Below are positions 3,227 through 35,099 of a stretch of 40,258 nt of DNA, in pieces. The notes under the pieces were generated by a model. That model did not search any database. It saw only the letters and a program-made list of their open reading frames with translations, and was not told the DNA's origin. How positions within the stretch are numbered: position 1 is the first letter of the stretch; each line of letters starts with the position of its first letter. The stretch comes from a virus. Taxonomy: Duplodnaviria; Heunggongvirae; Uroviricota; Caudoviricetes. The translations under genes and the position numbers were made by a program. The DNA lies in IMG/VR virus record IMGVR_UViG_2651869695_000011; one strand, written 5' to 3'.

Positions 3227-5971
3227 TTAACCTTTAGAAAAAACAGACAGTAACGGAAGTGTAAAAGTCGACACACCAGTATTCATCATGCAGGTTTTAC
3301 CACCTGAGTATCCAGATATGGTTTGCGAAACTGGACTTCCTGTTGTTGGGAAAATGGTGATTTCATCCCCCCCCTTCAATACTCTAACTTTGCCTGTAAC
3401 ATCAACCGATGAACTTGAAACAGACGTGAGAGATCCGTTGGTCATTGTATAAAAGTTTATAGTTCCTGTTGCTGTTCTGCTTACACCACATCCTGATTTT
3501 TGCTTCTGTTTATAGTTAAACAATACCAGCAGGCCAACAGGCATTGACTCAAGCTCAACTGCTGTAGACTGGTAGGTCTTACTGCCGTTTCTCATGTCAG
3601 GAGCCTCATCATCTGGATCAGAAAAATTATACCCAAGAGTTAAATCATTAACCGTGGCATTATTCCCTGTTATTCCTTTGACTTGATTAACACTTAACGG
3701 TATGTAATTAAACCCTGCAAAAAGCGGTGTTAACTTTTCTCTAAATAAAAGGCCTGGTGGGTATACTAACGAAGGTGTACCATCATATGTCACTGAGATA
3801 ATATTAAGTCCCTTTTTAAGGGTTCCAATGCACGTTGTTTGTTTGCCTGTAAATGATGTTAGCCCATTGCTGGCAACTTTACCTGATAGATAAGAAGAGT
3901 TCCTGATGTCATTGAGAATGACATTGAACTGGTTAACACGATCTGATGAAGTATAAGTTGGGTTATATGGCTCAAATAATGTTACAGAGATATCGCTTGT
4001 ATCACTCCATACAAAATACCGACAAATAACATTTTCATTTGAAGGCGTAATCCTTCCCCATCCACCAAGTGCATCAAGATAATCACCTCCACTTAATATC
4101 GAAATTGATGGGTAGTATCTGGTATTTGAAGGGTATCCAATACCAATAAATGAAAGTTGAGTAGTAGGGATTAGGTTCTTATTTTTTACAGCTGTATAAA
4201 CGCGCTCTTTTAATACCTCTTTTGCAGCATAAGCACCGATGTATGCATGTCCTATCGTTGATGGATGGCTCTGGTCAAAGACAGTACCGCCGTCACGTTT
4301 GGCAACATCAGATATAGAGTACGCGCCTATATCTGCATAAGCGTCAGTCGTGGCAATGGACAAATCCAAAAACTCGACCTTTGGGAAAAGGCGTTCGATA
4401 CGCTTCTTAATGGCTGACTCCAGGAAAGCCTTTGGCGCATCGTTATTGTTTACAGTAACAAAGCATATCGGACAACCATATCCCCATGATTTTCTAATCA
4501 ACTTTTCAAACTCATGAAAATACGCTTCAAATCCTATTGTTGGAAGTATTCCATTGTCATTAAAACCAAGGCTTATAAAAAGAACATCAGGAGCTTTTTT
4601 TCCATACGCAGCATTCTGGAAAAATCCATAGTCGAAGTTTTCATAACCCCAACCTGTCGCAAGTGACTTGCCAGACGATCCGCAGTTATATGCTTTAAAA
4701 ATATTATCCGTGCTGTCGGATAGCATATTGAGGCAATCAGTAAAAATTCTGAACCATGAATGCTTACCGCCATTTAAATTATGATTGTAGTTGGTAGAGT
4801 TAAGATTTCCATCGCTACCAGTCGGGTTCGGGGTCCATCCTGAACTATAGGCTCCATCCGTTATAGAATCACCAATGATACCTACATGGCAATCTTCTAT
4901 AGTTGATTGGTAACTCTGCTTATTTGCAAATTTAGCAATTGTTCCAAGAGCAGTAAAATCAGGGCCATTGTTAGATAGCCCAACATCAAAAACATGCTCA
5001 TTACCCCATTTGTCTCTTGTGAGAATTTTACCTTCTCCAAGAAATTTAGTCACATCATCTGACGGTAAAAAATTACACCTGATGGTTACATCTTTTGGGA
5101 TGTAAATCTGACCAGGGAAAGCATAAATTGCACTTCTGTTGTCAGTTGTCGTGTTAATAACGACATTTGGAACATAAAATATTGACGTTGCGTCAGTTCT
5201 ATATTGTCCGTTAACAAGCTCAGATCTGAGAACCGCATCCCCAACACCTCTCCAAGCGCCAGGACCAACACCACCAGTAGTGGTAGGAGTTGATCCTGGA
5301 GGAACTACTTTGGGCAGTGGCCCGTCCCATCTGTAGTATTCGCCGTTGCTTTCCCAGAGAAGAACATCGTTAAGATAGATGATGGTATTACCCAACTCAA
5401 AAGATTTCTTCGTGTTATAGCCATACAATCCATTTTCTAAGGTTTCAATAATGGTGCTAAGTATGGTACTAAATTTTGCATAAAGATCATCAGTATATTT
5501 TTTTGTAGCAGCATCTTGGGGAAGAGATGGATCACGAAGATTTCTAATATAATTTGAAAGCGCGTCATAAAAAATTGCTACGTCATTTGGCTTTCTTAAA
5601 GCCAACTTATCATTTCTTAATGATTGTTGAATGAGCATAGTAAGTTTATCAAACGCATCCTCATGTACCTCAGCGAAGAACTTACCCTGATTACGTAAAT
5701 CCGTTTCCTGAGTAGCTGGTAGTTCTCGTGATATAGATATCTGATGACCGTTAGCCAACGCCTTCGAGAGAATTACATTACCGCCGTTATATCCTCCAGC
5801 CCCGGTAACTGTGTAATCAGTATCAAGAGCCAGCACAGCGATATTTTCGTCAAGGTCAACCACCTGTACTACCAGATCAGATTTATTGAAAACCCTAAAG
5901 GTGTACGGAAATGATGTCGTAACGCCGTTACCTGTGTATTCGTTGTGGTCAACTTCGGTTGAGACCGTCAT
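3227..5971 (-). CDS. Tailspike/tail fibre: T7 gp17-like N-terminal adaptor + SGNH (GDSL) esterase domain + C-terminal beta-rich domain
   Basis: N-terminus YTGNGVTTSFPYTF...DLVV...DYTVTG resembles podovirus fibre head-binding domain; SGNH blocks GIIGDSITDG (block I), ISLGFNDN (block III), DQSHPSTIGH (block V); SD GGAG 8 nt upstream; AT-rich body. Confidence 0.8.
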   Translation of the reverse strand: MTVSTEVDHNEYTGNGVTTSFPYTFRVFNKSDLVVQVVDLDENIAVLALDTDYTVTGAGGYNGGNVILSKALANGHQISISRELPATQETDLRNQGKFFAEVHEDAFDKLTMLIQQSLRNDKLALRKPNDVAIFYDALSNYIRNLRDPSLPQDAATKKYTDDLYAKFSTILSTIIETLENGLYGYNTKKSFELGNTIIYLNDVLLWESNGEYYRWDGPLPKVVPPGSTPTTTGGVGPGAWRGVGDAVLRSELVNGQYRTDATSIFYVPNVVINTTTDNRSAIYAFPGQIYIPKDVTIRCNFLPSDDVTKFLGEGKILTRDKWGNEHVFDVGLSNNGPDFTALGTIAKFANKQSYQSTIEDCHVGIIGDSITDGAYSSGWTPNPTGSDGNLNSTNYNHNLNGGKHSWFRIFTDCLNMLSDSTDNIFKAYNCGSSGKSLATGWGYENFDYGFFQNAAYGKKAPDVLFISLGFNDNGILPTIGFEAYFHEFEKLIRKSWGYGCPICFVTVNNNDAPKAFLESAIKKRIERLFPKVEFLDLSIATTDAYADIGAYSISDVAKRDGGTVFDQSHPSTIGHAYIGAYAAKEVLKERVYTAVKNKNLIPTTQLSFIGIGYPSNTRYYPSISILSGGDYLDALGGWGRITPSNENVICRYFVWSDTSDISVTLFEPYNPTYTSSDRVNQFNVILNDIRNSSYLSGKVASNGLTSFTGKQTTCIGTLKKGLNIISVTYDGTPSLVYPPGLLFREKLTPLFAGFNYIPLSVNQVKGITGNNATVNDLTLGYNFSDPDDEAPDMRNGSKTYQSTAVELESMPVGLLVLFNYKQKQKSGCGVSRTATGTINFYTMTNGSLTSVSSSSVDVTGKVRVLKGGDEITIFPTTGSPVSQTISGYSGGKTCMMNTGVSTFTLPLLSVFSKG

Positions 5972-6024: not shown

Positions 6025-6090
6025 ATTACCTAAAAAACCACATATGGATAGATAACCCATAAATACGAACAGATATTACCTTTCAGGTAA
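6025..6090. promoter_or_regulatory. Bipartite upstream element of the tailspike operon: ATTACC-TAAAAAACCACATATG plus palindrome TTACCTTTCAGGTAA
   Basis: Perfect 6+3+6 palindrome at 6076-6090; AACCACATATG at 6036-6046; same arrangement recurs upstream of portal and early-gene operons. Confidence 0.45.
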
Positions 6091-6129
6091 TTCGCAAAAC
6101 GTGCTGGATAGCAAACAAATTATTTGCTA

Positions 6130-6145
6130 CTGTATAAATATACAG
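6130..6145 (+). promoter_or_regulatory. LexA (SOS) box
   Basis: CTGTATAAATATACAG matches CTGT-N8-ACAG with AT-rich core (consensus TACTGTATATATATACAGTA); 8 nt upstream of SD GGAG and ATG at 6167. Confidence 0.7.
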
Positions 6146-6166
6146 TTATTACATGGAGAAGATAAG

Positions 6167-6424
6167 ATGCAGCAGTATCACTATCCACTGGAAGACGGAT
6201 TTACCGAAAGGATTCACACGCCGGGAGGCGTCAGGTCACTGGTGGAGGGATCGCACTTGATGAAATTACTCCGGGATCTCGATAAGGATGGATTTAATGT
6301 CGATGGCCCACTTGCCGAACTGACTGCACTGATTAACTACGTCACCAGCTCACAGATGTCTATGCGGGATCTGCAAACACATCTCGACTATTGTGCCGAA
6401 CAATTACGAAAACAAACCAGATAA
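6167..6424 (+). CDS. Small antirepressor-like protein (stand-alone paralogue of the Bro-N protein C-terminal domain), LexA-controlled
   Basis: 85 aa; SD GGAG at 6154-6157; aligns with last ~70 aa of the 6740-7450 product (shared IH.P.GV..L.E.S.LM.LL..L..DG..V.G..AELT...Y......RD.QTH..Y). Upstream GTG 6101 extension rejected. Confidence 0.5.
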   Translation: MQQYHYPLEDGFTERIHTPGGVRSLVEGSHLMKLLRDLDKDGFNVDGPLAELTALINYVTSSQMSMRDLQTHLDYCAEQLRKQTR

Positions 6425-6560
6425 GATTTGAAATTACCAAGAGGAGTGCTTATATTTACCTTTGCGGTAAATTTACATCGCACTCCTCTTGTGCCATAGT
6501 AATCGGGCACTGGCAAAATCCAGTGCCGGGATTGGCGTCCCGAGTTACTAAGTGGCGCAT

Positions 6561-6583
6561 ACCACGCCAGACGTGGTTTTTTT
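6561..6583 (+). terminator. Rho-independent terminator
   Basis: ACCACG-CCAGA-CGTGGT hairpin followed by TTTTTTT. Confidence 0.55.
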
Positions 6584-6739
6584 ATGCGTTAAGCACAGCC
6601 ATATCCGAATTATGGTGGGCTGGGCAGGGGTCCGAAAGGACGCCGGTACCACTTAGGCCGGTACGCCAACCTTGTCCAGTTCACCACCAGTAATTGGCGT
6701 TGCGGTGGTGATTAAAATCACTAAGTGGAGATAACCACC

Positions 6740-7450
6740 ATGGCTAATGCTCAAACTGCCATCTTCAAATTTGAATCTGTTAACCCTATCCGTTCCATCA
6801 TTATCGATGGCCAACCATGGTTTGTAGCCCAAGACGTTTGTAGTGCGCTGCGTATCCAAAACGTCACCCAAGCACTTGAAAAACTGGATGATGATGAAAG
6901 GTCTATGTTCAACATAGGGCATGAACATCGTGCAATTTTTGACAGCCGAGTAAAAGAGATCAACATCATCTCCGAGTCAGGCCTCTACACACTGATCCTC
7001 CGCTGCCGCGATGCGGTGACACCAGGCACTATCCCCTACCGCTTTCGTAAATGGGTTACAGGTGAGGTTCTTCCTCAGATCCGCCGCACCGGAAGTTACA
7101 TTAAAAACTCGCTCCCGCAGGAAGAACGCATAAAGATGGTTGCCGACCAGGTAGCCAACGCCACAGCATCAGCAGTGATGCAGGCAATGAAGATAGAGAA
7201 CAAAACCTACAGTGCCCCACTGAAGCCCGGCTACCGCAGTCTGATTCATTCTCCGTCTGGTGTTCTCGGCCTGACGGAGAACTCACTGCTGATGAATTTG
7301 CTGAACCAGTTGCAGGAAGACGGGCACGATGTATCGGGCGCGGCGGCGGAGCTGACCACCATGTTTTGCTACATCGTTGGTGTGAGCAAATGCCTGCGTG
7401 ATATCCAGACTCACGCGGAGTACATCAACGACAAGGCTGGGTTCTTCTGA
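6740..7450 (+). CDS. Bro-N domain antirepressor-family protein
   Basis: Classical Bro-N signature (FKFESVNPIRSIIIDGQPWFVAQDVCSAL...LDDDE...ISESGLYTLIL...FRKWVTGEVLPQIRRTG); SD GGAG 9 nt upstream of ATG 6740; C-terminal domain paralogous to 6167-6424. Confidence 0.75.
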   Translation: MANAQTAIFKFESVNPIRSIIIDGQPWFVAQDVCSALRIQNVTQALEKLDDDERSMFNIGHEHRAIFDSRVKEINIISESGLYTLILRCRDAVTPGTIPYRFRKWVTGEVLPQIRRTGSYIKNSLPQEERIKMVADQVANATASAVMQAMKIENKTYSAPLKPGYRSLIHSPSGVLGLTENSLLMNLLNQLQEDGHDVSGAAAELTTMFCYIVGVSKCLRDIQTHAEYINDKAGFF

Positions 7451-7597
7451 CGGGCGGCGGCACAGGGATGTGCCTTTAAATAATTCTGTACAGATTGCAG
7501 ACTGTGGGTGAATAGCGTACTATTACCTCAAGGGTAAACGGATTGGTTTCATTTTTATTAATCCGTGTAATGAACTTATGAGATATGAGGTAATGTC

Positions 7598-7777
7598 ATG
7601 CGAAACGAAAAATTGCAGATGCGTAGAGCGCAAGCTGCCGCAAGACGTTCTTTCAATGGAAGCGTAGAGTACGTAAAAGTTACTATGACAAAAGATCACG
7701 CAAGTCGCGTATCCCGAGCTTTCTTTGATTCTCGTAACAATAAGGAAAATTATGAGTTCGTCTGCGTCGCAGAATGA
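7598..7777 (+). CDS. Small basic protein (59 aa), possible DNA-binding or antitoxin-like partner
   Basis: Not in ORF track (below size cutoff); good SD TGAGGTAA 6 nt upstream of ATG; Arg-rich N-terminus; 3' end overlaps start of next gene in a different frame. Confidence 0.3.
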   Translation: MRNEKLQMRRAQAAARRSFNGSVEYVKVTMTKDHASRVSRAFFDSRNNKENYEFVCVAE

Positions 7778-8297
7778 TAAAAATCAAATTGTCAGATATA
7801 AGGGTCGAGTATTGCATACGCAAAATTTCTCGGCCCTTTGTGCATCTGATCTTGAGCTGAAGAAAGTATCTGATGCCTTTACCCAGTATTGGAAAACGGG
7901 ATACCATCCATCTCTTGGTAAAGATGCTGCATTTGCTCGTCCGACAGAAATGCTTAAACTAAATGTCAGGCATACTCATGTCGATAACCAAGACTATATT
8001 CCAGAAGATAGTGATAAAAAACACACTGGTAAAAAATCATCTTGGGATGCATGGAAAAATATAGCGTCTGTGCAAGTAAAATGCATACCAACAAGTGATT
8101 GCTTTTTAGTTTATTCGGTAAATCACAATCGTGATGCGCTGGTTATGTTTTTTGTTGACGCAGATGCCCACAACATAACTGAGCAAGAAGAGTTTAAAGA
8201 GGAAGCAATCACTATCAGTTATCAATTCTTTGAGAAAACAAAAACAGAACCAATGCCTTTAGAAGAAGATCTTTTTTCTGATAAATGGAAGGAATAA
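7752..8297 (+). CDS. Hypothetical moron protein (181 aa), no family recognised
   Basis: SD AAGGA 7 nt upstream of ATG 7752; AT-rich codon usage unlike neighbouring virion genes; followed by a strong terminator. Confidence 0.5.
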   Translation: MSSSASQNDKNQIVRYKGRVLHTQNFSALCASDLELKKVSDAFTQYWKTGYHPSLGKDAAFARPTEMLKLNVRHTHVDNQDYIPEDSDKKHTGKKSSWDAWKNIASVQVKCIPTSDCFLVYSVNHNRDALVMFFVDADAHNITEQEEFKEEAITISYQFFEKTKTEPMPLEEDLFSDKWKE

Positions 8298-8319
8298 GCC
8301 CGCGTTGCGGGCTTTTTTG
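8296..8319 (+). terminator. Rho-independent terminator
   Basis: GCCCGC-GTT-GCGGGC then TTTTTTG immediately after the stop codon. Confidence 0.65.
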
Positions 8320-8396: not shown

Positions 8397-8957
8397 CTAC
8401 ATTGATATATGATTCATAAAGTAGCTTAAAGATTTACTTCCCAGAAAAGAAATTTCTTTTCCTGGATATGTCGCAATAATTGAGCATGACTTATCCCCGT
8501 TAGAGGTAACAAATCCTGAATAACCTACTTGTTCTTTACCATTTTGTTGCTTGGCTAAAAAGTAGAGGTAGCTTATCTTTTTGCCCTCTGGGTAAAACTC
8601 TGCCAAACCAGTATCGGTGATTGAATATTTTATTCTCCCGCCTTGAGTAACGTTTTCCATCTCAAGTTTAGCTATGTCTTTTCTGTTGTATTCAGCATTG
8701 ATTTTCCTTTCGAAATCAATGTTGTTTTCAAATGAGTAGGAAGCAACAGTCTGAATAGATGGGAACACGTTTATCTGGATGCCTCCACAGTCGGCACAGG
8801 TATAAAGGTATGAATCAGATGGAATCCCCATAAAAGAAAACTGAGTTACCTTAAATTTATCGTTATCTCCAAAGTATTGAAGTTCGCATTTAACATTTTG
8901 CCCTGCAAAAGAAAATGCAGACATCAATATTGAAACAAAAAATATAATTGCCTTCAT
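8397..8957 (-). CDS. Secreted protein (cleavable signal peptide), function unknown; last gene of virion operon
   Basis: N-terminus MKAIIFFVSILMSAFSFA|GQ; start 2 nt after stop of upstream 850-aa virion gene; markedly AT-rich. Confidence 0.55.
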   Translation of the reverse strand: MKAIIFFVSILMSAFSFAGQNVKCELQYFGDNDKFKVTQFSFMGIPSDSYLYTCADCGGIQINVFPSIQTVASYSFENNIDFERKINAEYNRKDIAKLEMENVTQGGRIKYSITDTGLAEFYPEGKKISYLYFLAKQQNGKEQVGYSGFVTSNGDKSCSIIATYPGKEISFLGSKSLSYFMNHISM

Positions 8958-25436: not shown

Positions 25437-25513
25437 GTGGCATTAGCTCAGTTGGACAGAGCAACCGCCTTCTAAGCGGTTGGTCGCAGGTTCGAATCCT
25501 GCATGCCGCGCCA
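25437..25513 (+). tRNA. tRNA-Arg (anticodon UCU)
   Basis: Cloverleaf by hand: acceptor GTGGCAT/ATGCCGC (one U-G pair), D-arm GCTC-AGTTGGACA-GAGC, anticodon arm ACCGC-CTTCTAA-GCGGT, T-arm GCAGG-TTCGAAT-CCTGC, discriminator G, encoded CCA; close to enterobacterial argU. Confidence 0.85.
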
Positions 25514-32990: not shown

Positions 32991-33763
32991 GCTTCAGGGC
33001 TGTTCCAGTGCGGAACGTTGTTATCAGGTAATGTTGATTGCTTCTGTCTGCTAATCTGCAGCCGCCTTGCCAGCTTCTGCTCCCACTGTGCCTGATGGTA
33101 TGCCTTACCCTCAGCCATCCAGTAAATTCTGAATTCTGCAAGTTCCTGTGCCGTTGGCAGACTGTCCAGGTAGATCCCCTGCAATGAGCTTTTCCGAAGA
33201 AAGTCATCTGATGGCTGCCATTGTTCATGCATGACAAATTTGCCTAATTGCCCTGGCCCACCAGGAGGAACAAAGTTATTCATCACGGCGTTGTTTGCGC
33301 CGGGGTCATGAGGCACAGAATCCCCGCTTTTTGTCCTGCTCTCCCTCTCTTGGTTAAATGACTGGTTATATGACTGGTTCTGGATCCCGTTTTTGGGATC
33401 ATTCAACATCCCGTTTTTGGGTATATTCCCGTTTTCGGTAACATTACCGTTTTCGGGTTCATTACCCCCTTCCCGGTTGCCTTTAATGTTCCCGTTTTTG
33501 GTTATATTAAGAGAGAAAACCCGCACTCTTTTCGTCGCTCCCTTTCTCTCACCGGTATCTGAAATAAGCCCCATTTTCATGAGCGATATAAGCCCGGCCT
33601 GCACGGTTTTTTTATTCAGACAAGTGTCTTTAACGAGGCGTTCTATGCTGGGATAGCAGAGGTTATATTCATCGGCTCTGTCAGCCATCGAGAGCAGTAT
33701 GAGCTTTAATGACGAGCTACCTGGATCTGTCTCCCAGGCCCAATCTGTTGCATGTCTGCTCAT
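32972..33763 (-). CDS. Replication initiator, lambda O-like (N-terminal winged-helix, ori iterons in linker, C-terminal DnaT-like region)
   Basis: N-terminal DNA-binding region; Asn/Gly-rich repetitive linker encoded by iterons; C-terminal region recalled as DnaT-like; upstream of P-like gene; SD GGAG. Confidence 0.6.
   Translation of the reverse strand: MSRHATDWAWETDPGSSSLKLILLSMADRADEYNLCYPSIERLVKDTCLNKKTVQAGLISLMKMGLISDTGERKGATKRVRVFSLNITKNGNIKGNREGGNEPENGNVTENGNIPKNGMLNDPKNGIQNQSYNQSFNQERESRTKSGDSVPHDPGANNAVMNNFVPPGGPGQLGKFVMHEQWQPSDDFLRKSSLQGIYLDSLPTAQELAEFRIYWMAEGKAYHQAQWEQKLARRLQISRQKQSTLPDNNVPHWNSPEAWEDFL
33384..33503. repeat. Origin-like iteron array (CCCGTTTT[T/C]GG direct repeats) inside the O-like gene
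   Basis: Copies at 33386, 33410, 33428, 33446 (variant), 33491 spaced 18-24 bp (one gap with a degenerate copy), followed by AT-rich GGTTATATTAAGAGAGAAAA. Confidence 0.6.
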
Positions 33764-33778
33764 GATTAATCTCCGCTA

Positions 33779-33979
33779 TCAGCTTGAATGTTGTGGGGAG
33801 GAATTAATCATGATCTGCTTAATCTCTGCCCTGATGCGACGGTTTGATTCCATGGTGCACTCAACACAGTGTCCGTTGTAAACCCAGCGTTCACTGTCAT
33901 GTCCGTGCTTACATGTTTTTCCGGTGTAGTAGCGTTTAAGTCCGCGCTTTGCGGCATCAATACGTGTAATGATTTCCAT
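33779..33979 (-). CDS. Small zinc-finger protein (regulator candidate)
   Basis: CKHGH...(x)...CVEC metal-binding arrangement; start at ATG 33977-33979 tentative (weak SD); upstream in-frame ATG at 34015 possible. Confidence 0.35.
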   Translation of the reverse strand: MEIITRIDAAKRGLKRYYTGKTCKHGHDSERWVYNGHCVECTMESNRRIRAEIKQIMINSSPQHSS

Positions 33980-34082
33980 GGTAAGCCCTGTTATTAGTAT
34001 TGGGATTACGGTCATTTTGTGCTGACACAAAAAAAAGATCAACCAGATTTGGTTTTTTATTACCTTTGAGGTACGAATAGAT

Positions 34083-34108
34083 ATGAAAAGACCGCCGGGT
34101 GGCGGTCT
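34083..34108 (-). terminator. Terminator after cro-like gene (tR1-like position)
   Basis: On minus strand GACCGCC-ACCC-GGCGGTC followed by TTTTCAT. Confidence 0.5.
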
Positions 34109-34129
34109 ACAGAGGGTTGTAGCTGGATA

Positions 34130-34360
34130 TCATGAGTAGAAGAAGTATGCCAGTTCTGCTTTTGAGCGCAGCCATTGTCTTGTTTTACAGGCTTTAAAAA
34201 GCCCATCCATCAATACCTTACCTGGCATTTTGCGCTTACCTGTTAAGTGAGTCTGGATATAGTGACTCGTCGTTCCGGCTTCCTGTGCGAAGGCTTCACG
34301 CTCATCCGGAGTAAGTGCAAGCCAGTGCTTTTTGAAATCGAAATGTCCGTTATCGCTCAT
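34130..34360 (-). CDS. Cro-like HTH regulator
   Basis: 76 aa with HTH-like segment (EAFAQEAGTTSHYIQTHLTGKR); divergent from repressor across the operator cluster; candidate promoter TTGTTA-N17-TATTAT upstream. Confidence 0.5.
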   Translation of the reverse strand: MSDNGHFDFKKHWLALTPDEREAFAQEAGTTSHYIQTHLTGKRKMPGKVLMDGLFKACKTRQWLRSKAELAYFFYS

Positions 34361-34396: not shown

Positions 34397-34459
34397 TCAC
34401 CCATAAGGTAACAAAAATCAAGGATAGTTACCTATGGGGTGCATTTACCTGTTGGGTAA
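34397..34459. promoter_or_regulatory. O_R-like tripartite operator between cro-like and repressor genes
   Basis: TCACCCATAAGGTAA (34397-34411), TTACCTATGGGGTGC (34428-34442), TTACCTGTTGGGTAA (34445-34459); one overlaps the candidate cro promoter. Confidence 0.6.
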
Positions 34460-34514: not shown

Positions 34515-35099
34515 ATGAAAAGTATCCAGGACGTCCGCAGGCAAAATCTCAACGACTTGATCGACCGTGAATTCAATGGTGTTCAGACGCGGATGGCAGA
34601 AAAACTTGGAACTCAGGCAAATCTGGTAAACCGCTGGGCTCTTGGCAAGAAGGTTATCGGCGACCAGGTTGCGCGAAAAATTGAAGCTGCCGCCAATAAG
34701 CCCCGTAACTGGCTTGATATCGATCGCTCGCTTTCTCAGGAAGGTTTTCAGCCTGTCGGCCCAAGCGACATTGGTCAGCTGGCGGCCCACAACCTGGAAC
34801 GCTGGATGAGCGAAAGCCGCGACCTTTCAACACAGGGAAAACTTCACCGCGCATCCGGAGTCGCCCAGGTGACAATCAGCCGCCTGTTAAACAATGAGGT
34901 CAGCGTTTCCATTTCCACCCTGGAGAATGTTGCATCTGCATTCGGGCGTCACGGATATGAACTACTGATTCACCCGCACGACCCTGCAACTATCAACTAT
35001 GACCGCTCGCGCTACGCATTGTTACCTGAAACCGAGAAAGCAAAGATCGAAAGTTACATTGAATTTGTCATCAACCAGAACGAAAAAAACAAACAATAA
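34515..35099 (+). CDS. Prophage repressor, two HTH-like segments, no recognisable S24 peptidase/autocleavage domain
   Basis: HTH-like segments at about residues 20-65 and 110-155; no Ala-Gly/Ser-Lys LexA-like C-domain; no SD within 12 nt of ATG (possibly leaderless). Confidence 0.6.
   Translation: MKSIQDVRRQNLNDLIDREFNGVQTRMAEKLGTQANLVNRWALGKKVIGDQVARKIEAAANKPRNWLDIDRSLSQEGFQPVGPSDIGQLAAHNLERWMSESRDLSTQGKLHRASGVAQVTISRLLNNEVSVSISTLENVASAFGRHGYELLIHPHDPATINYDRSRYALLPETEKAKIESYIEFVINQNEKNKQ

Follow-up and report, generated by a model that had tools for sequence, protein, structure and literature searches.

The DNA considered here, called the window throughout, is the whole 40,258-nucleotide stretch of the IMG/VR virus record IMGVR_UViG_2651869695_000011. 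Between a tailspike gene (3227-5971) and large ejection-protein genes (from 8960), both on the minus strand, a setting shared with its relatives, the window carries two genes whose products have a C-terminal domain in common: ant, a small antirepressor gene preceded by a LexA box, and a gene that joins a Bro-N domain to an Ant-like domain (Bro-N::Ant hereafter). The 315-nt gap between the two contains a promoter-like site with an operator, an IsrK-like a1/b1 RNA with its terminator, and a C4 antisense RNA, in that order (Table 1). The window represents an epsilon15-like (Uetakevirus) temperate podovirus of Escherichia coli; the DNA of the locus is 92-98% identical to that of Escherichia phages HEMP4, TL-2011b, ZX5, and phiV10, all of which are Uetakeviruses, i.e., epsilon15-like podoviruses. 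We propose that the locus is a two-tier antirepression unit, a reading to which we assign a probability of about 75%. The first tier would be known biology by orthology, and the second would be a newly described arrangement of known parts.

The Ant protein matches a single solved structure, chain E of PDB 5D50 ("Anti-repressor protein"; phmmer E = 1.4e-46, residues 2-84), and is 86.7% identical to the product of the ant gene of Salmonella phage SPC32H (tblastn). It also matches PHROG 450 (E = 7e-48), a family labelled "unknown function," and no Pfam or NCBIfam model. By homology, the small gene is the known LexA-controlled antirepressor gene ant of epsilon15-like phages. A longer reading of it, a 107-residue open reading frame (ORF) with a GTG start at 6101, was rejected, as it is without a Shine-Dalgarno (SD) sequence and the PDB protein begins at the equivalent of the ATG. 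The original prediction had named the gene at 34515-35099 as the prophage repressor, and its product, Rep, indeed matches chain A of the same structure ("Repressor"; E = 4e-42). Rep has an HTH_3 domain and no Peptidase_S24 domain; therefore, inactivation by lambda-type self-cleavage is not expected. Among the E. coli relatives, Rep is 98.5-100% identical. Between the window and SPC32H (rep at 33739-34335 of record L012), the Ant effector is much more conserved than its target Rep, and the operator half-site is unchanged. For the SPC32H proteins, secondary literature describes an Ant tetramer that binds two Rep dimers and breaks up the Rep tetramer (PMC9638917) and has LexA self-cleavage lead to Ant synthesis, which it attributes to Kim and Ryu 2013 (PMC7380047).

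Sequence inspection placed the LexA box, the SD sequence of ant (GGAG, 6155-6158), its start codon (ATG 6167), and the 85-residue ORF exactly where the original prediction had them. The 20-mer TACTGTATAAATATACAGTT departs from the E. coli LexA consensus TACTGTATATATATACAGTA at two positions only (18 of 20 agree). The looser pattern CTGT-N8-ACAG occurs three times in the window against 0.52 expected, with an all-A/T core solely in the 6130-6145 copy, and base composition predicts 0.0025 occurrences of the strict form CTGTAT-N4-ATACAG. The position of the box is conserved in E. coli, Salmonella, and Enterobacter relatives. Among viral contigs with the Bro-N paralogue, 71 of 79 have ant upstream, and 69 of these 71 have a perfect CTGT-N8-ACAG, in which seven different cores are found between fixed arms. 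The window box aligns column for column with that of SPC32H and has the same spacing to ant. Over the 5.2 kb compared, two positions separate SPC32H from its sibling SPC32N, and at one of them an ACAG-to-AAAG change alters the right arm of the SPC32H box. Kim and Ryu (2013) are said to have traced the constitutively lytic behavior of SPC32N to one base change in a LexA site overlapping the ant promoter. The two further CTGT-N8-ACAG copies could be taken to mean that the palindrome arose by chance as an A/T-rich inverted repeat and plays no part in the SOS response; the agreement with the consensus, the rarity of the strict form, the conserved position before ant in different genera, where the cores vary between constant arms, and the SPC32N difference make this extremely improbable.

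By homology with SPC32H, the box overlaps the ant promoter, although the promoter scan returned no ant promoter at threshold and several -35/-10 options can be drawn by eye. The SOS-wired antirepressor that the original prediction proposed is thus well supported from sequence by the Ant orthology, the lack of Peptidase_S24 in Rep, and the homology of the box to that of SPC32H and SPC32N, but such wiring has already been published for an orthologue that is 87% identical. The circuit itself, in which LexA represses ant and Ant inactivates Rep, was published in 2013 and 2016, reportedly by Kim and Ryu (J Virol 87:11775) and by Kim et al. (PNAS 113:E2480), respectively. In three Klebsiella Uetakevirus relatives (L007, L008, and L009), the box reads ATGTATATATATACAG, lies approximately 25-40 nt upstream of ant, and has ATGT rather than CTGT as its left arm; LexA control of the Klebsiella ant may be looser or of another kind.

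Table 1. Sequence features of the antirepressor locus, the presumed Rep operators, and the repressor gene, with positions in the window.
Feature	Position	Strand	Basis or remark
Presumed Rep-operator copies	6076, 6456, 7523, 25100, 28245, 32076, 32138, 34445		Palindrome count in window
One-mismatch operator copies	28227, 34060, 34397, 35157, 35219		Window scan
Operator palindrome TTACCTTTCAGGTAA	6076-6090		54 bp upstream of LexA box
LexA box CTGTATAAATATACAG	6130-6145		Near-consensus, just upstream of ant
ant, 85-aa antirepressor, SPC32H Ant orthologue	6167-6424	+	PDB 5D50_E, PHROG 450
Promoter-like TTGAAA-17-TATATT (P_immI-like)	6428-6456	+	Promoter scan, 10/12 consensus; operator 6456-6470 starts at its last base
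Inverted repeat, 12-bp arms, CAAGAGGAGTGC...GCACTCCTCTTG	6438-6491	+	Encloses -10 and operator
Second operator palindrome TTACCTTTGCGGTAA	6456-6470		Abuts -10, covers expected transcription start
IsrK-like / c4-a1b1 RNA	6494-6584	+	a1 UUGGCGU 6532-6538, b1 CUAAGUGG 6548-6555, terminator hairpin 6561-6577 then T7
C4 antisense RNA	6608-6691	+	b' CCACUUAG 6649-6656 in hairpin loop, a' ACGCCAA 6663-6669 in single-stranded joint
C4 targets a2 UUGGCGU 6694-6700, b2 CUAAGUGG 6721-6728	6694-6730	+	Exact complements
Bro-N::Ant-domain antirepressor, 236 aa	6740-7450	+	Bro-N aa 17-112 (nt 6788-7075), Ant-like domain aa 155-231 (nt 7202-7432)
Third operator palindrome	7523-7537		Abuts promoter-like TTGCAG-17-TACTAT (by eye), upstream of ORFs 7598-7777 and 7752-8297
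Rep, predicted non-cleavable repressor, presumed target of both Ant-domain proteins	34515-35099	+	5D50_A; operator 34445-34459 just upstream

A 15-bp palindrome, TTACC-N5-GGTAA (mostly ATTACC-N5-GGTAAT), is present in eight copies in the window, where 0.00 would be expected. In SPC32H, epsilon15, and others, as in the window, the 6076 copy precedes the LexA box by exactly 54 bp. The epsilon15 record (AY150271.2) annotates the motif as "protein_bind: repressor, lysogeny" at seven sites, including the homologue of the 6076 copy and a cluster beside the repressor gene. On the strength of this annotation, together with its distribution and over-representation, we treat the palindrome as the presumed Rep operator. 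Genome-wide, the operators are found before the packaging/late, early-left, and rep regions as well as at the ant locus, a scattered arrangement that resembles the C1 operators of P1 more than a lambda-type single immunity region. The 6456-type operator lies approximately 51 nt upstream of the IsrK-like element in all seven module-bearing sequences, namely the window and six relatives.

Two stretches near these operators deserve mention in their own right. Approximately 30 bp upstream of the 6076 operator, at 6044-6065, all relatives have an extra half-site, ATTACC followed by ...ACC..TATATG.AT, near the equivalent of which an IHF site is annotated in epsilon15; this half-site could be part of the divergent tailspike promoter or of a complex in which Rep forms a loop. 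Downstream of the third operator, the 59-residue ORF 7598-7777 (PHROG 6685) overlaps the 181-residue ORF 7752-8297, and a terminator follows at 8296-8314. The larger product matches the Pfam YafO toxin family at 26.3 bits (cut-off 25), and the region 7488-8314 may be a Rep-repressed pair resembling a toxin-antitoxin system.

The original prediction supposed that the Bro-N paralogue receives a second and possibly different input. A different input does appear to be present, in the form of a promoter overlapped by a Rep operator and putative IsrK/C4-type antisense control of translation; the RNA elements and operators that make it up had been missed. The positions of the cassette -35 and -10 elements are kept in relatives, though their sequences differ. 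Matches to Rfam were judged at the curated gathering scores. The isrK family (RF01394) matches at 6507-6583 with 67.2 bits (gathering score 50), and c4-a1b1 (RF03163) at 6494-6546 with 44.3 bits (E = 2.5e-9), just under its gathering score of 46.7, with exact a1/b1 complements. The C4 family (RF01695) matches over model positions 1-87 of 87 with 66 bits (gathering score 45; relatives, 68-78 bits), and the minimum-free-energy fold of the RNA (-43.6 kcal/mol) is the family structure. By its elements, the cassette is of the P1 immI / Gifsy-1 isrK type.

Exact 7-nt or 8-nt complements of C4 are located at 6532 (a1), 6548 (b1), 6694 (a2), and 6721 (b2), and the 8-mer CTAAGTGG occurs in the 40-kb window at 6548 and 6721 only. 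The b2 element overlaps the SD sequence of the Bro-N gene (GGAG, 6727-6730), which is 9 nt before its ATG at 6740. RNAduplex energies of C4 against its targets (-35.4 and -46.0 kcal/mol) were not discriminating, with 42-55 of 500 shuffles as good, because the program unfolds the C4 stem; we therefore judged C4 pairing by exact complements and covariation. The inverted repeat at 6438-6491 forms a stable hairpin in the RNA fold of the read-through transcript but was rejected as an intrinsic terminator, as no T-run follows. Also set aside was a 100-residue ORF at 6391-6693, a translation running through the RNA genes. The equivalent of the ORF that opens at ATG 6611 is approximately 35 codons long in ZX5 and phiV10 and is annotated as an "ash family protein" in ZX5 (2672-2785 of L002). 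That coding sequence lies inside and just after C4, and some "Ash family" annotations may be translations of C4 genes.

Among the relatives compared, the cassette goes together with the Bro-N gene. Six Bro-N-bearing relatives (phiV10, ZX5, TL-2011b, Tyrion, ST512-KPC3phi13.3, and Kp4865-1) have the same order of operator, spacing of approximately 51 nt, IsrK-like element, C4, and Bro-N, and the cassette is absent from the four relatives without a Bro-N gene (SPC32H, epsilon15, BUCT711, and BUCT554). The pairing elements vary in concert. Three a1/a'/a2 variants were found (TTGGCGT/ACGCCAA/TTGGCGT, TTGGTCT/AGACCAA/TTGGTCT, and TTGAGAC/GTCTCAA/TTGAGAC), as well as three b'/b2 variants (CCACTTAG/CTAAGTGG, CCTTTTAG/CTAAAAGG, and CCTTTGTAG/CTACAAAGG). 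Across 81 modules (66 unique), these three a- and three b-variants occur in six combinations, each of which preserves the complementarity of a2 to a' and of b2 to b'; the pairing of b1 with b' sometimes includes a G-U pair. We regard this covariation as strong evidence of selection on RNA pairing. The b type is AGTGG in the window and HEMP4, AAAGG in phiV10, ZX5, and TL-2011b, and CAAAGG in many contigs, despite Rep being 98.5-100% identical across the E. coli Uetakeviruses. Among IMG/VR loci with a measurable gap, ant directly adjoins the cassette in 46 of 67, with an insertion of approximately 1 kb in the other 21. TL-2011b has such a ~1-kb insertion (3780-4868 of L004), annotated "similar to hypothetical protein" on the opposite strand. 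IsrK/C4-like DNA is scattered over 245 phage records, including Stx phages, APSE-2, and SfV.

The product of the second gene combines two recognizable parts. Residues 17-112 match the Bro-N domain (Pfam PF02498; E = 9.6e-20, 71.5 bits against a cut-off of 25.6), and the protein matches PHROG 130 and 1760, annotated "anti-repressor." Its C-terminal likeness to Ant, noted in the original prediction, is statistically sound: Ant aligns with residues 155-228 without gaps at 32 of 74 identities (43%; BLASTP E = 2e-16). The C-terminus of the Bro-N protein also matches solved Ant directly (5D50_E, E = 1.2e-13). The fold search was uninformative in this respect: Foldseek of the AlphaFold2 model against the PDB gave nothing at E<=0.001 and only weak SKI/DACH and Mbp1-like matches to the N-terminal domain, so the case for the C-terminal domain rests on its homology to 5D50_E. 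The same evidence favors the earlier suggestion that the shared domain is the module that targets the repressor. This is a reasonable reading, as the stand-alone Ant is the whole Rep-binding unit in 5D50, and it would extend Rep binding to the fused domain.

Word-indexed protein searches gave mainly near-identical orthologues and fragments, and an exhaustive profile hidden Markov model search was needed to recover the range of architectures. Covering 1.84 billion representative proteins, it returned 67 Ant-domain proteins at E<=1e-3. The domain, which is not covered by any Pfam or NCBIfam model, either stands alone in proteins of 82-95 residues or is fused, always C-terminally, to AntA (PF08346), Bro-N (PF02498), Phage_pRha (PF09669), or ORF6N (PF10543). 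Two subfamilies were apparent, with fifteen columns invariant across both. The Bro-N::Ant C-terminal domain is identical in E. coli relatives with an intact gene, approximately 85% identical in Tyrion, and approximately 55% identical in Klebsiella phages. Dozens of viral contigs have an intact, full-length gene with 98-100% conservation, and it is also present in many E. coli genomes. One metagenomic protein (P0139, 84 residues) is a natural chimera, with an N-terminal half like the stand-alone Ant and a C-terminal half like the Bro-N type; recombination between the two subfamilies therefore occurs. A stand-alone "type 2" Ant of 95 residues (P0133) lies in a small Klebsiella AlpA/HicAB island that is probably a remnant, and its context is uninformative.

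From these elements, homologies, and the covariation, we infer binding of LexA and Rep to their sites, repression by C4, and binding of Rep by the fused domain, which together would give the following switch. In the first tier, host LexA would occupy the 6130-6145 box over the ant promoter, and DNA damage would remove LexA and allow Ant to be made. Ant, a tetramer in SPC32H, would capture Rep and strip it from the ATTACC-N5-GGTAAT operators, resulting in prophage induction. In the second tier, transcription would begin at the 6428-6456 promoter, whose -10 and start are covered by the Rep operator. Most transcripts would end at the IsrK-like terminator (6561-6584) as a short a1/b1 RNA, and read-through would yield the C4 antisense RNA (6608-6691). 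The a' and b' elements of C4 would pair with a2/b2 (6694-6728) over the SD sequence of Bro-N::Ant and block its translation. In a lysogen, the second antirepressor would thus face two locks, with Rep acting on the promoter and C4 on the ribosome-binding site. It would be made only if Rep is already failing, or if the a/b type of an incoming genome is unmatched by the resident C4. The C-terminal domain of Bro-N::Ant would then act on Rep, making the protein a commitment or anti-immunity factor. P1 and P7 have the same C1 specificity and are heteroimmune through c4. We favor the anti-immunity or commitment role because the b types differ under a near-identical Rep, mirroring these two phages.

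Several observations weigh against this two-tier reading. The 6076 operator lies outside the likely core promoter of ant. Rep is 43% identical to SPC32H Rep overall (53% in the N-terminal domain and 37% in the C-terminal domain, which Ant contacts), compared with 87% for Ant, and the transfer of the Ant-Rep interaction is therefore plausible rather than guaranteed. The window has no upstream ORF of the icd/orf45 type, as the frame opened by ATG 6611 ends within the b' loop after just 14 codons; the mechanism therefore cannot be an exact copy of that of P1 or Gifsy-1. In the AlphaFold2 model of the 236-residue protein, the Bro-N domain is confident, but the Ant-like domain is of low confidence, with a predicted local distance difference test (pLDDT) score of 36-67. 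Lastly, the phiV10 Bro-N gene (3787-4371 of L001) encodes 194 residues and is truncated inside the Ant-like domain by a frame change after ...LLMN. As phiV10 is a viable temperate phage, its basic life cycle can do without the second tier, and with it the second antirepressor.

The anti-immunity role also has a serious competitor, in which Bro-N::Ant is a feed-forward amplifier of SOS induction; we consider it credible, though not the probable reading. Ant would inactivate some Rep, the 6428 promoter would fire, and the a1/b1 RNA would titrate C4, such that the second antirepressor is translated and the switch locks, possibly helped by read-through ant transcripts with a1/b1 at their 3' end. 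The Rep operator over the cassette promoter and the complementarity of a1/b1 to C4 a'/b' suit this scheme, as do the adjacency of ant and cassette in 46 of the 67 measurable loci and the lack of an intrinsic terminator between the ant stop (6424) and 6561 in both the terminator scan and the RNA fold. So does Gifsy-1, where short IsrK turns on, in trans, the translation of the anti-repressor encoded downstream, and where the locus has a part in induction (PMC4825925). However, the ~1-kb insertion in 21 of the 67 loci indicates that read-through coupling is not conserved, SPC32H and epsilon15 induce without a cassette, and a/b diversification under an identical Rep is better explained by selection for heteroimmunity. 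A more elaborate version, which we hold to be doubtful, combines both ideas into one wired circuit: SOS-induced ant transcripts and the IsrK-like RNA released from Rep control would sponge C4 and license Bro-N::Ant, with a/b-shuffled RNA heteroimmunity operating under a constant Rep. The ant transcripts, unterminated before 6561, would carry an a1/b1 decoy in their 3' region, and an incoming relative with another a/b type could break the resident's repression via its own Ant-domain protein.

Other readings question the target or the relevance of the second protein. Bro-N::Ant might act on non-cognate repressors of co-resident or resident prophages rather than on the phage's own Rep, as the 43% identity of the two Ant-type domains, their division into two subfamilies, and the four different N-terminal modules could indicate; alternatively, the Ant-like domain might merely oligomerize a DNA-binding Bro-N protein, whose model weakly resembles the DNA-binding SKI/DACH and APSES folds. 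We find either unlikely, since the C-terminal domain diverges in step with the Rep type (E. coli, Tyrion, and Klebsiella), the fifteen invariant columns span both subfamilies, and the P0139 chimera suggests that the halves are interchangeable. Were the cassette instead a passenger that plays no part in the lysis-lysogeny decision, be it a moron or a mobile regulatory module in decay, its absence from SPC32H, epsilon15, BUCT711, and BUCT554, the truncation in phiV10, and the spread of similar IsrK/C4 DNA over 245 phage records would be readily accounted for. Yet the conservation of the intact full-length gene in so many contigs and E. coli genomes, the perfect a/b covariation, which implies ongoing selection on RNA-RNA pairing, and the phage's own operator at a fixed cassette position render this very improbable.

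At its core, the two-tier unit is an orthologue of a genetically and structurally characterized system, and its antisense cassette belongs to curated RNA families. The SPC32H Ant/Rep system (PDB 5D50, 5D4Z) shares the genus, the position between tailspike and ejection genes, an Ant that is approximately 87% identical, a homologous Rep without S24, the distance from LexA box to ant, and the operator palindrome 54 bp upstream of the box. It differs in that ant stands alone, with no IsrK/C4 RNAs and no Bro-N::Ant gene, and in a Rep just 43% identical to that of the window. P1/P7 immI (c4, icd, ant1/2; Citron and Schuster 1990) has a C4-family RNA with a'/b' elements, preceded by a1/b1 and followed by a2/b2, the latter pair over a ribosome-binding site; it also has a downstream antirepressor, a promoter under the main repressor, scattered operators, and a shared repressor with differing C4 specificity. 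The window, in contrast, is without an icd-like coupled ORF and has b2 directly over the antirepressor's own SD sequence; its antirepressor has another C-terminal domain, with Rep rather than C1 as the presumed target. P1 is also a myovirus with a plasmid prophage, whereas the window phage is a podovirus.

Gifsy-1 offers a further comparison. In its isrK-orf45-anrP locus (Hershko-Shalev et al. 2016, PMC4825925), transcription starts at the isrK promoter, but anrP stays untranslated until short IsrK switches it on in trans. Downstream of IsrK there is a stable RNA that arises by processing, and the AnrP product is an inducer of the prophage. Like the window, it pairs an IsrK-family RNA and terminator with read-through into a transcribed but translationally silent anti-repressor gene (PMC4825925), and the prophage has, apart from this locus, another small antirepressor under LexA control (Lemire et al. 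2011, PMC3121763). For the two Gifsy-1 loci, neither adjacency nor a homologous domain in common is reported, a distinction drawn without protein comparison, and coupling to orf45 is required there, whereas the equivalent ORF of the window is truncated. SOS- and IsrK-controlled antirepressors in one prophage have a precedent in Gifsy-1. Coliphage 186 Tum and N15 AntC follow the same logic, as each is a small antirepressor that is held off by LexA and inactivates a repressor that is not cleavable. The original prediction cited Tum and the Gifsy antirepressors as precedents, and as functional analogues they stand; sequence similarity did not appear, in that the Pfam, NCBIfam, and PDB searches brought up SPC32H Ant only and no named antirepressor family, the family-library matches above threshold were all to PHROG families, and no direct comparison with Tum or Gifsy GfoA was made. 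To our knowledge, two antirepressors that share the Ant fold, the second gated by the phage's own operator and C4, and the shuffling of C4 specificity under a constant Rep have not been described elsewhere.

The locus is common but under-annotated in E. coli. Among 5426 complete E. coli genomes, 534 (~10%) match it, with ant and its LexA box in their prophages, and 211 have at least 80% of it. There, ant is annotated as "hypothetical protein," owing to the lack of a Pfam or NCBIfam model and to the "unknown function" label of PHROG 450. Elsewhere in the window, a 186-residue ORF between the cassette and the ejection genes (8397-8957, minus strand) matches PHROG 11983, of unknown function; its N-terminus is hydrophobic by eye and may carry a signal peptide. 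A tRNA gene lies near the packaging end (25437-25510; Rfam, 69.4 bits).

Together, these findings provide a structure-backed annotation that is transferable at once: E. coli prophages of this type should be SOS-inducible by antirepression, not by repressor cleavage. The solved SPC32H Ant fold emerges as a module that "antirepressor" proteins of the Bro-N, AntA, Rha, and ORF6N kinds can carry at their C-terminus. Of the many C-terminal domains in this superfamily that have no assignment, one thereby receives a specific function that can be tested. The E. coli branch of the genus appears to have added a P1-like antisense immunity layer to the LexA/Ant/Rep switch. With its a/b specificity diversifying under a constant Rep, this branch may serve as a tractable system for RNA-based heteroimmunity.

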